Source: a virus. Taken from it: a stretch of DNA of 64,000 nucleotides. The DNA is taken from positions 1 through 64,000 of IMG/VR virus record IMGVR_UViG_3300009104_000008, one strand, 5' to 3'. This document shows positions 24,780 through 49,428 of this stretch, piece after piece (positions within the stretch are counted from its first letter, which is position 1; every line of letters starts with the position of its first letter). The notes beneath the pieces were generated by a model. The model was not told the DNA's origin. It worked only from the letters and a program-made list of their open reading frames with translations, and did no database searches. The translations under genes were made by a program, and so were the position numbers.

Positions 24780-27326
24780 CTAAGCGGGGTTGCCTTCGGG
24801 CAGGGGTAAATTTTTATACCTATCTTCAGTAATATCCCATAAACCATCGTCTTCTTTTGATTCTAACATAGTTTGTTTTGTTCCTGTCCAAACAACCCAA
24901 TGCTTTTTATCATTCAAAGGAACGACCCTAAGATGTAATCTAGTGTCAAATTTATCCCCTTGTATCTTAAATTCATGATAACCGTGTCTTTGAACGCCAA
25001 GAGTAATAATTCCTTTATCTAATATTTTACCTTCTCTAGCATTACCTAAAACAACTTTGGCAGGAAATTTATTAGATTTACCAAATAAGTTATAAACATC
25101 AGAAGTATCTTCAATATCTATTAACCACGCTAGTCTTTTTTCATTTACAATATAAATTAATAAAAGATTATCATCTTCAGTAGTTGTAATTGTGAATTTA
25201 CCTTTTTTTGGGTTAATTTTCTCATCTTTTGCTATTGCAGATGGGTTTGCTGAAAATTTATCATTAGCGCGGTCATAAACAATATCTTCTTGTTTAATTA
25301 GCCACTTTTTCAATTTCTTAGAATCTCCATCAAACGCTGGCCCTTCAAAATGTTCAATATAATTTTCTAACACAAATTCTTGTATTGTATCAAATTCTAC
25401 TTGGTCATCCCATTCAATTAATTTATTTTTAATGCCCATTCTTAATTCAGAACGCACACTTTTAAGCGCAATTTGTAAATCTTCTTTCCAAACATCTATA
25501 TCATATAGTGCTTGTTTCTCCATTAAACTATCACCATTAAAACCGTAAATAGTAAATCCATCTAAATTAGATTTCATAAGAATTTCTGCTTCCCCATGTA
25601 TTTCATCAGTAATATACATTTTCTTTACGCCTTTTAATTTATATTGAAATGGCTTATCTAAATCTTCCCAAATTGATTTCTTGGCTTTGTCTGATAACAA
25701 CTCTAAAGTCTCTAATTTATCTGATTGAGTTACTTCAGGGATTTCAATAACCTTTGCTGAAAATAAACTAAAACCTTCTTTAGTTTTCTTTACCTCATCC
25801 ACCTTAACTCTAACAATACTACCCACCTTAACAGATTGCTTAGTATTTAGTGCTTTACCTACAGAAAGATAGGCTTTATCTTTTAATTCTACAGTCTTAT
25901 ATGAACGGGCTTGTTCAGCAGTTAATGGGCCTATACCTAAAGTATATGAATGAAGCCCACTTTTTGTTTCTTTACTATCTAAAATAATAACATCTAAATC
26001 AACAAATTTCTTCCATTTAACCCACTTAGGGTTTTTCTTAGAACCTAACTGGTAAGTAGATTCAATGTCCTTAATTACAACTCCCTCAGAAGCAGGTAAA
26101 TTCATTATTTCCTCCGCATAATCACCTACTTCTTTTATAGAATCTGCAATTCTAGTATCTTTCTTTGAAGGATATGCCAATTCTTCAGATGAATGTTGGG
26201 CATATTGATATAGCAGAATATTAATTCTTTCTCTCAAAGGTTCATCTAATAAATCCTTATCATCATGTTCCATAATATCAAATACATGAAGCCTTAATTG
26301 ACCACCCTCAATGGGCTTCTTAAAAATGTGTGAAATTGTGGCGGCTCTATGAAGTGCTTTACCATTTTTAAATAGCATTAACTCCCCATCTAAAATACAA
26401 TTGCCTATATGTTTCTTATCTAACCTTTCTATTTGTTCTGAACATTTATCAGAAATATCTTTTTGATTATAAGAAAGGATTTTAATTGTTTTACCGTTTT
26501 TATGAATTTGCACTCTCATGCCGTCATATTTTTCTTGAATTACATATTCACCAGAAAAACCTTTCAGTTGCTCTAGGTCTTTTAATTCAAATATCCTATA
26601 CATTGGTTTATTAGGAACTAGGAAATTAATCTCTGACTTCTCAGCCTCGCTTTTCTCAGATTTTTTAATATCTATCTCAATTAACGCATTCCATTCCTTT
26701 TCATTATATTCCTCAAGAAACACCTTTTTTAGTATAGATAAAACACTCTTAAATTTGGTTTTGATGCGCTTAGTATCTTTATCTTCCCCATAGTGCTCTG
26801 AAATGTATAAGGGTATATCTTTCATCTCTAAATCTAATCCATTTGCATTTTGAGTTATTTCATCGGGCTTAAGGCCGTGTTTTTCCCATGCCGATGCGGG
26901 GATTGGTAGGGAATGTTTGCGAAGGGCATAGTGAATAAAGGCGGCGAAGACACTAGAATTACTGAGTAATACATCAATTACTTCTTCGCCTAACTGATTA
27001 GCGAATGGGTCGCCAACTTCTTTAGAATCAAACCTCATTTCTTTGACTGCATCATATAGCCTCTTGGCTTGAGTTGATTCAGGGTTTTCAGCCCCATCAT
27101 CAAATAAGTTATCTTCATCAATGTATTTCTTTAATACTCTAGTAAAAGAATCTAAACCATCAAACGACTCACGAATAGACTTAACTGTTGCTCTCCATTT
27201 TTTACCGTATTTATTTGGGTCTTCTTTTGCAGATAAGTAAGAATAGCGAGTCCTCTCAAAGAAATCTAAAACACGCTTGGATAGCGCATTTTTTTCTTTT
27301 TCAAAGGAAACGCCAGATATAGCCAT
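24780..27326 (-). CDS. lig: ATP-dependent DNA ligase with N- and C-terminal extensions
   Basis: EKYDGMR (motif I), LDGEL, VFDIM, EGVVIK, WVKWKK, then an OB-like domain. Confidence 0.9.
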   Translation of the reverse strand: MAISGVSFEKEKNALSKRVLDFFERTRYSYLSAKEDPNKYGKKWRATVKSIRESFDGLDSFTRVLKKYIDEDNLFDDGAENPESTQAKRLYDAVKEMRFDSKEVGDPFANQLGEEVIDVLLSNSSVFAAFIHYALRKHSLPIPASAWEKHGLKPDEITQNANGLDLEMKDIPLYISEHYGEDKDTKRIKTKFKSVLSILKKVFLEEYNEKEWNALIEIDIKKSEKSEAEKSEINFLVPNKPMYRIFELKDLEQLKGFSGEYVIQEKYDGMRVQIHKNGKTIKILSYNQKDISDKCSEQIERLDKKHIGNCILDGELMLFKNGKALHRAATISHIFKKPIEGGQLRLHVFDIMEHDDKDLLDEPLRERINILLYQYAQHSSEELAYPSKKDTRIADSIKEVGDYAEEIMNLPASEGVVIKDIESTYQLGSKKNPKWVKWKKFVDLDVIILDSKETKSGLHSYTLGIGPLTAEQARSYKTVELKDKAYLSVGKALNTKQSVKVGSIVRVKVDEVKKTKEGFSLFSAKVIEIPEVTQSDKLETLELLSDKAKKSIWEDLDKPFQYKLKGVKKMYITDEIHGEAEILMKSNLDGFTIYGFNGDSLMEKQALYDIDVWKEDLQIALKSVRSELRMGIKNKLIEWDDQVEFDTIQEFVLENYIEHFEGPAFDGDSKKLKKWLIKQEDIVYDRANDKFSANPSAIAKDEKINPKKGKFTITTTEDDNLLLIYIVNEKRLAWLIDIEDTSDVYNLFGKSNKFPAKVVLGNAREGKILDKGIITLGVQRHGYHEFKIQGDKFDTRLHLRVVPLNDKKHWVVWTGTKQTMLESKEDDGLWDITEDRYKNLPLPEGNPA

Positions 27327-44627: not shown

Positions 44628-44666
44628 ACCATATGGTTGGTGCTTTGCTACCACCCCATTTTAATT
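44628..44666 (+). promoter_or_regulatory. Repeated promoter motif, copy 1
   Basis: ACCATATGGT-N5-CTTTG-N5-ACCCC-A-TTTTAATT. Confidence 0.6.
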
Positions 44667-46282: not shown

Positions 46283-46482
46283 AGCATCTCCGGCAAATTA
46301 AGTTGTTTTATGATTGGTTCAATATCACGCATTACAATAAGAGTTGCATCATTTAACTCATCGGTGCAATCTGCTCTTATTTTAACGCTCTTAACAATCC
46401 AAACATGATAAGAACCAGATTTTGATTGCCCGAATTCAACTGTATATCTAAAATTATCTTCTTTAACTTCTATATTGTTCAT
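46279..46482 (-). CDS. Small hypothetical protein
   Basis: ATGA-coupled in operon. Confidence 0.6.
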   Translation of the reverse strand: MNNIEVKEDNFRYTVEFGQSKSGSYHVWIVKSVKIRADCTDELNDATLIVMRDIEPIIKQLNLPEML

Positions 46483-47201
46483 TCCATTACCTCCGTTATT
46501 CTATGTAATGTAGCATCTGCAATATCTTGAGAACAAGCCTGAGATGTATGATTCATACACTCAAACCTACAATCTAATACAGGCTCATTAACTATAATAT
46601 CATATTTTAACAATGAATCAACAAGAACCTGTTGAATATGTGCTATCTCAGAAATAAAATAATCATTCATTCTGCTTTCTATTTCTTTAGGTGCTCTTTT
46701 CTCATCAGTAGTCCATTCAACCTTATAATTAATAGTTAATTCGTTGCGCCAACTATAGGTGGTTAAATATACATTAAGAACCATATCTTCCCCTACAATA
46801 GTATAATGTGTAAGTTCATCACTATCTGTAAGATATAATGAAGCCAAAGAAGGAATTTCATTTTCAACTATCTTTGTCTTTTCTTCAACTCTTTCAACCA
46901 CTTCATGAATAAAACCGTTGTTAGTTAATTGCTCAGATATATTTCCTGCCTCATATTCATAAGATGTTGAAAACATTTCATCTCCCTCTTCATTAGTGGA
47001 TAAAGAGTCTTTTATGAAAAAAACATAATGCGACTTTAATTGCTGTTCTGTAGTAGGCACATAATAATCCTCTTTCTCACAATTCTTAAATTCACCCAAA
47101 AAGAAATCTTGTTTTTGCATTTCAATAAAGAAATCTCTTATTTTCTCTTCTTCTTTTATTGGGAATTCAATGCTTATGCTTCTTTCATATCTCAAACTCA
47201 T
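46479..47201 (-). CDS. Acidic hypothetical protein, probably leaderless
   Basis: ATG about 24 nt downstream of the TATA-like box of promoter copy 2. Confidence 0.7.
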   Translation of the reverse strand: MSLRYERSISIEFPIKEEEKIRDFFIEMQKQDFFLGEFKNCEKEDYYVPTTEQQLKSHYVFFIKDSLSTNEEGDEMFSTSYEYEAGNISEQLTNNGFIHEVVERVEEKTKIVENEIPSLASLYLTDSDELTHYTIVGEDMVLNVYLTTYSWRNELTINYKVEWTTDEKRAPKEIESRMNDYFISEIAHIQQVLVDSLLKYDIIVNEPVLDCRFECMNHTSQACSQDIADATLHRITEVME

Positions 47202-47224
47202 ATACTACACCAACAACGATAGGG

Positions 47225-47260
47225 GTTATCAAGGGTAATAGCAAAGCATTACCATATGGT
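47225..47260 (-). promoter_or_regulatory. Repeated promoter motif, copy 2
   Basis: Minus strand ACCATATGGT-N4-CTTTG-N5-ACCC-TTGATAAC. Confidence 0.65.
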
Positions 47261-47321
47261 TGGATAATGGAACTTTGTGAATGCTTAAACCCCAATATGG
47301 CCCAGAAGGGCCAATTGAGGC

Positions 47322-47910
47322 GTAGGCGGGGAAATCACGCTTATTCGGAATCCTCCGAATCTGCCGATGGTTGGGTTAGAACAACGGGTAATTCTCCATC
47401 CCACCAATACTCGGCTTCTGTGTCGTTTGCGGCCATAGATGAATAGGCCTTCTTGAGTCTTGCATTTACAGGCTTTGAAACTGCTTCGCCATATTCGGAA
47501 GCATCCTCATAAAGACCGCCACCACTGCGCCCATGTCGGGTCATCAGTGAAGCGACTATCTCATTATCGCTGTATGTTGCGACCATTACCGCATTTAGGT
47601 CTTGAGTCGCACTGTCTGCATTTGCTACAACTTGTGCTGGTAGGCTTGAAGTCTTGCCCTTTCGGAAGGGTGCGCCCTCAATACCAGCGAAACAAGCCCT
47701 AATAGCGTCATACATTGACTGTGCTGATTCATCGCTTGTGCGACCAATAGTCAGCAGTTGGCTCAATACCGCCAACTTAGGGTATTCTGTCGAGTAGTCT
47801 GGATTAACATTCATCCAAGCCTCGATTTCTTCTGCTTTGTTATCAAATTTCACTCTAATATCTGTCATATTTCTTCTCTCCTTATCTCCCGTAGGTTATT
47901 CCCCGCCTAC
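47322..47910. repeat. 12-bp perfect inverted repeat bracketing paralog A
   Basis: GTAGGCGGGGAA (47322-47333) and TTCCCCGCCTAC (47899-47910). Confidence 0.9.
47341..47868 (-). CDS. Hypothetical protein, paralog A
   Basis: Shares P[FW]RKG...LPA, HGRS, YxDxxxYG, WDGxL and an acidic end with 48325-48828. Confidence 0.8.
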   Translation of the reverse strand: MTDIRVKFDNKAEEIEAWMNVNPDYSTEYPKLAVLSQLLTIGRTSDESAQSMYDAIRACFAGIEGAPFRKGKTSSLPAQVVANADSATQDLNAVMVATYSDNEIVASLMTRHGRSGGGLYEDASEYGEAVSKPVNARLKKAYSSMAANDTEAEYWWDGELPVVLTQPSADSEDSE

Positions 47911-47929
47911 ATCTAATGGCCGAGTATAG

Positions 47930-47967
47930 GGGTTATAGGGTGTTACTCAAAGTTCACACCATATGGT
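47930..47967 (-). promoter_or_regulatory. Repeated promoter motif, copy 3
   Basis: Minus strand ACCATATGGT-N5-CTTTG-N6-ACCC-TATAACCC. Confidence 0.65.
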
Positions 47968-48220
47968 AGTAATTGGTTTAATTAGATTAATTTAATTATT
48001 ATGTCTAACTTTTGCAGTCGGGCAGGAAGCAGATAAGGTATGACAACAGGAGATTACAATGTTGCTATTGGTTATGATGCTGGAATTGCATATATTTGCA
48101 GTGTAGAAATTGCACTAAGAATAATAACTTGGATTTTCAATATGTTAGCGTCATCCGTCAATGAAAAACGCTACTTTCTTTTGAATACCACTTTTCCACT
48201 TTTCCAATGTTTCCAACCCT

Positions 48221-48257
48221 ATCATATGGTTCGACTTTGTTCCGAACCCTTCATATA
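48221..48257 (+). promoter_or_regulatory. Repeated promoter motif, copy 4
   Basis: ATCATATGGT-N4-CTTTG-N6-ACCC-TTCATATA. Confidence 0.65.
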
Positions 48258-48277
48258 GGCTTACTCGATGGGATATA

Positions 48278-48851
48278 TTGCCCCTACAAGGCGACAGATA
48301 ACTCAGTTATCAGAGGTAATTATTATGGCAGAAAGTTGGAATGATACACTATTAAAGGCACAACAAATGATTGACGCAGATGAGGCTGGAAACATCACTA
48401 ATGATGTTAGACAGGCTTTTGAGATGCTAAGTAATGTTGGTAATCAACAGTATGAAGCAACAGGAGAAACACCTGAATCTATACAAAAGGCGATTAAGGA
48501 GACATTAAGGAATTATCCCGGATATCCTTGGAGAAAGGGCGGTGGCGGCGTATTGCCAGCAACTGCACTTAGCGTTGTTGATTCACTCGGCACAGATGCC
48601 GCCAATTCATTTGGTCGCGCATTCGATGAGTGTGGGGAGGGTATTCGTGCTTTCCTTACACCACACGGTCGTAGCAGTAAACAATCCTATTCGGATGGTG
48701 CTGACTATGGAGCATATATTAGCAAGTCTATCAAAAAGACTGCAACAAGCCTATACAAGGCTGGAACATGGGATGGAACATTAGACGGTCTATCCTCCGC
48801 TATTATGGAGGATGACGAATCAGAGTGATTCTGTTGACCTTGTAGGGGCAA
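48278..48851. repeat. 14-bp perfect inverted repeat bracketing paralog B
   Basis: TTGCCCCTACAAGG (48278-48291) and CCTTGTAGGGGCAA (48838-48851). Confidence 0.9.
48325..48828 (+). CDS. Hypothetical protein, paralog B
   Basis: Likely ATG 48325 (MAESW) after GAGGT; motifs shared with paralog A. Confidence 0.8.
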   Translation: MAESWNDTLLKAQQMIDADEAGNITNDVRQAFEMLSNVGNQQYEATGETPESIQKAIKETLRNYPGYPWRKGGGGVLPATALSVVDSLGTDAANSFGRAFDECGEGIRAFLTPHGRSSKQSYSDGADYGAYISKSIKKTATSLYKAGTWDGTLDGLSSAIMEDDESE

Positions 48852-49428
48852 CACACTCTTTTTATTCAATTCATAATATAATCAAATTATGAGGTGTTTA
48901 TATTTCAAAGCAATATAACACCATATGATTGTATTTACTTAAAATTAACATTAGGTCGGAGTCGCGGGAGCATCTTTTATAACCCCCTTCGTGAATCTTG
49001 TATTGTTAATCAATACCAACCAATTCCAAGAGAAGGTTTAATCAGAACATATCTTATAAGGTATCTTAATTATGTTTCTAAATTTCTCTTCCAAATTAAC
49101 AGGTATTTCTAACACCTTCATTAACAGATGAATATCTATAAGATATTAATATGTATACCAATATCCTATATTGTATATCCTATATATTATACTATAAGAA
49201 CAATCAAATGTGGGTCAATATGCAACACTTCCAGTTTTCCAGTATCGTTGGAAAAGATAAAGTGAAGCAAAATGAACCACATATAAAAGATATCTTATAC
49301 AATATAATCATTATTCTAATTTCCAATTATTACAATACTATATACCCCTCCTTCTCTCTCCCTTCTCTCTCTCCCTATTCTCTATGGGGTGGGCTGGAAA
49401 AGTCGGAATAGTGGAATAGACGAGAATC

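Follow-up and report, generated by a model that had tools for sequence, protein, structure and literature searches.

Candidate end-paired messages from two divergent paralogous genes of a probable Marine Group II archaeal virus

The window analysed here is a 64,000-nucleotide (nt) stretch of virus DNA, positions 1 to 64,000 of the IMG/VR virus record IMGVR_UViG_3300009104_000008. It carries two neighbouring genes, designated A (47341-47868, minus strand, 175 amino acids (aa)) and B (48325-48828, plus strand, 167 aa, its start set at the ATG at 48325 by alignment with relatives), which are transcribed away from each other. The encoded proteins share 32% identity over 115 aa (E 1e-12), so that the description of the pair as back-to-back divergent paralogs, given in an initial annotation made from the letters of this DNA, holds. 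The same annotation claimed that each gene is enclosed by its own inverted repeat, of 12 nt for A and 14 nt for B, and a repeat search recovers both as perfect (47322-47333 / 47899-47910 around A and 48278-48291 / 48838-48851 around B). Comparison with related sequences makes it very probable that the two ends of each message are held together by base pairing.

Read in the sense of its messenger RNA (mRNA), the 5' arm of A is GUAGGCGGGGAA (47899-47910, minus strand), situated at the predicted transcript start, and its 3' arm is UUCCCCGCCUAC (47322-47333, minus strand), which occupies +8 to +19 after the stop codon. The 5' arm of B (48278-48298, plus strand) consists of the outer 14 nt (48278-48291) and an inner 7 nt (48292-48298), while its 3' arm (48830-48851, plus strand) begins 2 nt after the stop codon with UCUGUUG (48830-48836), followed by a bulged A (48837) and the outer 14 nt (48838-48851). 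An inward extension of the B helix through CGACAGA/UCUGUUG with one G.U pair had been anticipated and is present, with the single bulged A intervening, which brings the helix to 21 base pairs (bp) in total. The arm of A resembles the complement-side arm of B. In a chance test on a crude set of 98 open reading frames (ORFs) of at least 70 aa from the entire 87-kb record, using 70-nt flanks on each side, the longest perfect flank complement was 4-8 nt for 97 of the 98 and 12 nt for A, B being left out of the count and represented by the 14 nt of the repeat search. Within this genome, the complementarity of the two ends is therefore specific to A and B.

Related DNA was available from one close viral contig (L003/L004), from three distant viral contigs (L005-L007, later also L026/L027) and from 13 metagenome loci (L011-L023), and gave alignments of 14 A units (A6) and nine B units (A7), many of them near-identical and falling into three sequence groups each. 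In the B units, 96.0% of the cells of a 19-pair helix and a 6-pair leader hairpin are paired, compared with 32.7-47.5% in slid controls, in which the 3' partner was moved by 1-3 columns. Five pairs (14 cells) carry changes on both sides, a pattern found in none of the slid controls, and the covariation score of 0.213 was reached by 0 of 500 shuffles (0.082 +- 0.017); within the 5' arm the covariation falls at positions 17, 21, 22 and 23 of A7. Between the window and L003/L013, four pairs of the B helix have changed on both strands and a fifth position on the 5' strand only, despite 95% identity of the B proteins.

The A helix behaves similarly among its close relatives, with 11-12 of the 12 pairs formed in all eight window-type units and one G:C to A:U double change in L003/L013. 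Over all 14 units only 75% of cells are paired, owing to a register shift in an A-like group of six units at 65% protein identity: these form 5-6 of 12 pairs in the window's register and 18 of 18 in a register displaced by three columns, with an arm sequence unrelated to that of the window. On each of the distant contigs there are two or three paralogs, among them type A2, whose own helix of 14-19 bp differs by two double changes in L005 versus L006, and type C, which has its own 17-bp helix, one U.G of which is turned into U-A in the relative on L027. Altogether, helices of 12-28 bp occur in 12 units, and the complementary flanks expected of homologs are kept in the window-type A, B, 65%-identity, A2 and C units. 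A search for more loci with the A2 alignment returned only the three known viral contigs, and none in genome contigs.

A matrix of all pairings among the flanks of 11 units, computed with RNAduplex (-65 to -8 and +1 to +50; wider flanks of 130 nt inflate the energies through palindromic promoter motifs on both sides), places the cognate 5'/3' flanks at -33.2 to -42.6 kcal/mol in nine helix-bearing units, compared with a mean of -18.1 kcal/mol (standard deviation 5.9) for the 110 off-diagonal pairings. Flanks of different paralog types pair at about -9 to -26 kcal/mol, and those of close relatives of one type as strongly as cognate flanks, to -43.2 kcal/mol.

The nature of the imperfect pairs identifies the strand on which the helix acts. 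All non-Watson-Crick pairs in the core helices, 0-4 per helix, read as G.U or U.G along the sense strand of the gene concerned (B and the main A2 helix have 1-3 each, the inner A2 helix two, A one and C four), and would be A.C mismatches if the opposite strand were read. The sole A.C, a 1x1 mismatch, occurs in the outer part of A, which is not conserved. Because A and B lie on opposite DNA strands, no single replication strand can explain sense-only wobbles. Single-nucleotide bulges shift along the helix between lineages. It is these pair types inside the core helices, rather than duplex energies, that constitute the strand evidence. In combination, the compensatory changes, the separate helices of four paralog types and the sense-strand wobbles strongly support the core proposal of the initial annotation, that the 5' and 3' untranslated ends of each transcript pair with each other, and the alignments show a helix that is conserved by selection acting on the sense RNA.

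Smaller structures accompany the arms, and these fared unevenly among relatives. After the 3' arm of A stands a local 6-bp hairpin, UGGCCC/GGGCCA (47298-47313, minus strand), whose cells are 97% paired across the 14 units, with double-sided changes in two pairs and a sense-strand G.U in four rows (L011, L012, L015 and L016; two distinct rows). An outer GGCCA/UGGCC pairing, proposed as an extension of the A helix, was set aside, as the pairing is lost in L003/L013 and its 3' half is part of this covarying hairpin. In the 5' untranslated region (UTR) of B, the proposed hairpin GAUAAC-UCA-GUUAUC (48297-48311, plus strand), directly upstream of an AGAGG ribosome site, is paired in 98% of cells and carries one A:U to U:A compensatory change in two of nine units; another, GAAUCA/UGAUUC, is intact in one of nine aligned units and thus finds no backing. 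The two small hairpins inside the arms of A are invariant among units.

The placement of the arms relative to the putative promoters is nearly constant. The promoter of A (47911-47967, minus strand) comprises the ACCATATGGT palindrome (47958-47967), CTTTG, an ACCC box (47938-47941) and a TATA-like box; that of B (48221-48277, plus strand) has the palindrome with one mismatch, CTTTG, an ACCC box (48246-48249) and a TATA-like box. CTTTG, an ACC(C/T) box and a TATA-like box form a composite promoter common to A, B, A2 and C, and the palindrome opens it in A, B and C. From the ACC(C/T) box to the first arm nucleotide, the distance is 31 nt in three units, 32 nt in six and 34 nt in one (10/10 units; 31 nt for A and 32 nt for B), and in the seven units bearing it, CATATG stands 53-57 nt before the arm. 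The archaeal TATA box is usually centred about 26-27 nt before the transcript start; given this and the fixed spacing, the predicted start would lie within about 2 nt of the 5' arm. With their ends at -31 (A) and -27 (B), the 5' strands stop short of the Shine-Dalgarno (SD) sequence, and across the helix-bearing units they end 13-33 nt before the AUG. The 3' arm starts after the stop codon at +2 in B, +8 in A, +12 in C, +18 to +22 in the main A2 helix and +1 in the inner A2 helix. A T-rich tract had been reported after the 3' arm of B, and T5 is indeed found at 48859-48863 (plus strand), 7 nt after the arm, where it is likely to act as a transcription stop. Runs of at least four T follow the 3' arm within 6-10 nt in three units and within 16-46 nt in three, and are absent within 60 nt of the arm in the window's A and in C of L007.

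Several further observations concern these flanks. The palindrome has seven matches in the window (up to one mismatch) versus 1.98 expected, and the composite promoter recurs in a 4.3-kb stretch at 44628, 47251, 47958, 48221 and 48920; the palindrome suggests a dimeric regulator, which may be common to A, B and a 240-aa gene at 46479-47201. In both A2 and C (L005-L007 and L027), CUAUGAAC(A/G) stands directly before the 5' arm and GGCCACC directly after the 3' arm, despite differing arms. Relatives carry about 110 nt downstream of the T-tract of B, including CCTCCTTTGG, that are missing in the window (48866-48872 in the window versus about 3560-3670 in L004; alignment A1).

Folding of the full predicted RNAs (603 nt for A, 587 nt for B), a check that the initial annotation had proposed, closes both on the terminal helix, in the minimum-free-energy (MFE) structure as well as in the centroid. 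The folding tool gives z-scores of -6.95 (A) and -6.45 (B). Our own shuffles (30) yield -4.4 and -6.2 for the full units of A and B, -3.4 and -2.8 for their coding parts alone, and -2.4 to +0.7 for eight other ORFs of the same genome. The SD-like AAGGAGAG of A (47876-47883, minus strand) is unpaired in MFE and centroid, as is the AUG; in B, SD and AUG are unpaired in the centroid, and the SD is partly paired in the MFE structure. The models thus show a terminal helix that dominates the predicted fold, and a predicted message that is unusually compact with its ribosome site accessible.

Twenty of 22 sequencing runs listed contain part of the stretch, and six are RNA libraries. Coverage was taken from four of the six (X15-X18, three studies) and amounts to 11 contig pieces, at 47327-47638, 47400-47607, 47329-47464, 47609-47733 and 47753-47903 on A, and at 48286-48487, 48304-48542, 48399-48587, 48514-48770, 48590-48849 and 48598-48771 on B. 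In the contigs of these four runs there is no cover at 47100-47291, 47932-48251 or 48892-49000 and there are no joints, which implies neither silence nor a lack of circles or inversions; contigs drop rare forms. The coverage is compatible with two discrete, abundant messages that have the arms as their limits. The outermost positions covered on A in run X18, 47903 and 47329, pair with each other in the helix; the contigs behind these ends are about 88-90% identical to the window, and the ends, which for the present count against a full-length helix, may reflect coverage loss, coincidence, an alignment that breaks off in a diverged relative or a cut in the helix.

The proteins of A and B belong to a helical family without annotation. 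Neither Pfam nor PHROGs gave a match above threshold, and tblastn against phage records gave none. A profile search returned 232 related clusters at E <=1e-3 among 2914 candidates, all from marine data, none with a Pfam domain and several on contigs of 77-98 kb. An AlphaFold (AF2) model built from 55 sequences (mean pLDDT 86.7) is all-helical with two short strand pairs. The fold search that had been suggested for the family produced no convincing match to a solved structure: Foldseek with this model against the PDB gave a best E of 1.7, and a wide VIA-align search gave Z of at most 6.7, to generic helical bundles and over residues 1-70 only. A BFVD structure search found one unnamed relative, and the ESM Atlas search gave nothing usable. 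Invariant residues of the family are R69, G71, P77, A78, H112, W156 and G158, and the C-terminus, as in A, is acidic. As the initial annotation stated, A and B are visibly richer in GC than their surroundings, with 200-nt windows of up to 0.50-0.52 compared with about 0.30 around them, and coding sequences (CDS) of 0.47 (A) and 0.44 (B) compared with 0.33 for the genome. The GC content at third codon positions (GC3; 0.40 for A, 0.33 for B) is near the genome value, so that the excess stems from amino-acid composition, and a foreign origin of the genes was rejected on this ground. The family appears to be an unannotated magrovirus protein family that is apparently well expressed; our guess is that the expression features would suit a nucleic-acid-binding or structural protein that is small and abundant.

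The source record, of 87,384 bp and an estimated completeness of 92%, encodes a tail tube, an HK97-like capsid protein, a portal and a terminase. Among 50,697 phage records its capsid protein finds 11 matches, every one of them a tailed archaeal virus (of Haloarcula, Methanomassiliicoccales or Methanofastidiosa). A family-B DNA polymerase (PolB) is split into two reading frames (genome 74324-76090, beyond the 64-kb window), a split described as a feature of group B magroviruses by Philosof et al. (PMC5434244). Tailed-virus morphogenesis genes, archaeal-virus capsid kinship and split PolB thus coincide here as they do in magrovirus group B, and the capsid kinship together with the split polymerase indicates that the host is probably a Marine Group II archaeon. 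In the neighbourhood of the two genes, the 240-aa protein encoded downstream of A (46479-47201, minus strand) has a weak, sub-threshold match to the PBECR4 nuclease (E 0.0093; 16.8 bits versus a cut-off of 27). An 848-aa ATP-dependent ligase in the head-gene block (24780-27326, minus strand), with a further match to the RNA_ligase family (E 3.8e-7), bears solely on the speculative idea of a circular mRNA mentioned below. Between 46000 and 50000, Rfam yields no family at E values up to 1, and a blastn search with the region found no match.

In the interpretation that we favour, with a probability of roughly one half, the terminal helix stabilises a translatable, long-lived mRNA. A and B would be two monocistronic, well-expressed mRNAs of a tailed Marine Group II virus, in each of which the first transcript nucleotides pair with a stretch just past the stop codon. 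The resulting terminal helix of 12-21 bp would close the message of about 0.6 kb and leave the ribosome-binding site single-stranded, hiding the 5' end from archaeal 5'-3' exonucleases of the aRNase J / aCPSF2 type and, together with the downstream hairpin or U-tract, shielding the 3' region from 3'-5' decay. The message would thereby be long-lived and efficiently translated. Threats of both kinds are described in archaea: aRNase J is presented as a 5'-3' exonuclease conserved in Euryarchaeota (PMC7144898), and the archaeal exosome as degrading single-stranded RNA from 3' to 5' (PMC7667871). Among the functions put forward in the initial annotation, stability fits best. A translational lock like that of type I toxins gains no support, as SD and AUG are open (A in MFE and centroid, B in the centroid) and the proteins are soluble, helical and of 167-175 aa; nor does circularisation, in view of the absence of joints from the contigs of the four RNA runs.

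Several points weigh against this interpretation. Type B2 is the commonest among the relatives listed (109/120) and has no 5'-3' helix, its flanks pairing at -10 to -12 kcal/mol only, so the helix is not essential to the family. B2 messages end instead in local structures: a 5' hairpin capped by UACG or UUCG (cUNCGg) and, on the 3' side, two hairpins, one of 9-10 bp and a GC-rich one of 13-14 bp, ahead of UUUU (structures located at 2958-2985 and 3499-3556 of L005, and likewise in L006 and L007), the AT-rich 3' hairpin covarying between L005 and L006. Structured ends thus appear to be the common denominator of the paralog types, which supports a role in end stabilisation, and B2 may reach the same result by separate 5' and 3' hairpins. 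The footprint of a terminating ribosome should melt part of a 3' arm that lies 2-8 nt past the stop codon, which is as compatible with a role linked to translation as with pure stabilisation. The alignments are small, with 14 A and 9 B units, many near-identical, in 3 + 3 sequence groups, and duplex energy favours sense over antisense in 7 of 10 panhandle units only, a comparison blurred by extra outer pairs and for this reason dropped as a strand test. As to the metatranscriptome check proposed at the outset, cover is confined to the two units, but the contigs end 2-8 nt inside the arms (47327/47329, 47903, 48286 and 48849); if these were true ends, most of the helix of A would be missing from the RNA, although contigs cannot resolve true transcript ends. 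The pieces are contigs that carry no strand information and may include DNA carry-over, and one insert end at 47329 abuts the adaptor.

The alternatives differ in where they place the function of the helix. A translation-linked closed loop, in which the stop codon is held near the ribosome site for re-initiation, or in which ribosome traffic opens the helix and couples decay to translation, is considered unlikely but could coexist with stabilisation. In all helix-bearing units the 3' strand begins +1 to +12 past the stop codon and the 5' strand ends 13-33 nt before the AUG, the ribosome-binding site is open in the folds, and there are partial precedents in the joint action of both UTRs in Haloferax translational control (PMC2636863) and in the coupling of hbs stability to initiation (PMC5737220); yet B2 paralogs keep structured ends with no 5'-3' pairing, and the 3' strand of type C and of the main A2 helix does not begin until +12 to +22. 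We consider it quite improbable that the helix is a processing or ligation signal, whereby a cut by a double-strand-specific or splicing-type endonuclease releases the unit from longer transcripts or the ends are held for circular ligation. The layout resembles the leader-trailer stems of ribosomal RNA (rRNA), and the paired outermost positions in run X18 and the RNA_ligase match of the 848-aa ligase are in keeping with it. However, the bulges are single-nucleotide only, and the bulge-helix-bulge motif of two 3-nt bulges around 4 bp is not found in the printed duplexes; a genome search found neither RNase III nor RtcB in the virus, and RNase III matched none of four archaeal control genomes; no joint occurs in the four RNA runs, with the reservation that contigs drop rare forms; and the constant distance between arm and promoter suggests a primary 5' end.

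Two further explanations dispense with a helix inside the message. In one, inward-facing promoter copies on both sides would make convergent sense and antisense units, the arms being merely their common first bases and the antisense RNA a regulator. A promoter-like copy does lie downstream of A (47251-47321, plus strand: palindrome, CTTTG, ACCCC, with the arm 33 nt on), and inward copies also lie downstream of B (48929 to about 48870, minus strand) and of C in L007 (3603-3652, minus strand); these may be antisense drivers or decayed duplicates. This arrangement is nonetheless very unlikely to account for the arms, since it leaves the lineage-specific compensatory changes and sense-only G.U pairs unexplained, relatives have a 110-nt insertion between the downstream copy of B and the arm, RNA contigs give no cover at 48892-49000 or 47228-47291, and the palindrome beside A also serves the next gene. 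In the other, the repeats are a DNA-level element, either the recombination sites of an invertible switch or the terminal repeats of a mobile cassette. Each gene does sit between inverted repeats, is GC-richer than its flanks and has the arm similarity between A and B described above. Against this, the mismatches are sense-strand G.U only and bulges are tolerated, the arms change fast yet stay complementary where the protein is 95% identical, GC3 is that of the genome, and direct repeats outside the arms were not found. The enclosed proteins belong to no Pfam family, transposases included, and the 87-kb record has no Resolvase or Phage_integrase match, although a host enzyme is possible. Four virus lineages retain the gene pair, its orientation does not vary in 9/9 two-gene loci, and the ribosome-binding site follows the promoter-side arm in 23/23 units (14 A, 9 B). 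DNA inversion at the repeats, which the initial annotation named as a contrary outcome, thus meets one orientation in all units and no joints in the RNA contigs. An invertible switch or mobile cassette was accordingly rejected as the principal reading, on the sense-only G.U pairs, the moving bulges, the lack of a recombinase, the fixed orientation and the lack of joints, and we regard a DNA-level role as extremely improbable.

Long-range pairing between 5' and 3' UTRs is already known for a few bacterial mRNAs. In Bacillus subtilis, a 14-bp pairing of the hbs UTRs is described as modulating RNase Y cleavage (Braun, Durand & Condon 2017, PMC5737220), and hbs shares with A and B a long-range helix enclosing the ORF of a short, small-protein mRNA; it differs in being bacterial, in depending on RNase Y and J1, and in having its helix over an internal cleavage site in a long structured leader rather than at the 5' terminus itself. 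A and B, for their part, belong to an archaeal virus, place the helix at the predicted transcript start and have their own helix in each paralog lineage, all on the evidence of sequence comparison. In Staphylococcus aureus, the icaR 3' UTR is reported to mask the SD, create an RNase III site and repress the message (summary in PMC3868564). In A and B, the 5' arm ends at least 13 nt before the AUG, outside the SD, and the virus has no RNase III. The hok mRNA has a fold-back (fbi) that pairs its 5' end with its 3' end into a stable, compact molecule, an arrangement of the full-length mRNA that A and B share. The hok product is a membrane toxin of roughly 50 aa, with a sequestered ribosome site and an antisense RNA regulator; the products of A and B are soluble, helical and of 167-175 aa, with open initiation regions (A in MFE and centroid, B in the centroid only). 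The leader-trailer stems of rRNA and the bulge-helix-bulge stems of archaea likewise flank a whole functional RNA with a long-range helix, from which A and B differ in their protein-coding content, in having no bulge-helix-bulge motif and in that no circular junction was seen.

In archaea, the nearest parallel is Haloferax volcanii, in which the 5'- and 3'-UTRs are needed together for translational control, although no base pairing is shown in PMC2636863, whose text speaks of neither base pairs nor complementarity. No report of 5'-3' end pairing in mRNAs of archaea or their viruses was found in the literature searched, and a text search of two magrovirus papers found no mention of promoter, inverted repeat or palindrome. 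The stabilisation of archaeal messages and the communication between their ends are little understood, the haloarchaea having supplied only the joint need for both UTRs (PMC2636863).

Our results show a 5'-3' helix that compensatory changes have preserved in no fewer than four paralog lineages of abundant, uncultured ocean viruses, while the sister lineage B2 would have solved the same problem with local hairpins. The element is compact and testable, consisting of two arms of 12-21 nt. A bolder proposal, to which we assign only a small chance, is that these are RNA-only closed-loop messages, in which a near-blunt helix with a 5'-triphosphate acts like the bridging of cap and poly(A) in eukaryotes. 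Both ends would then be protected and terminating ribosomes handed back to the start, and the helix might even offer two ends to the virus's second ligase for a circular mRNA. If this were true, the archaeal virosphere would have evolved a strategy, shared across a whole family, of joining mRNA ends through nothing more than base pairing.

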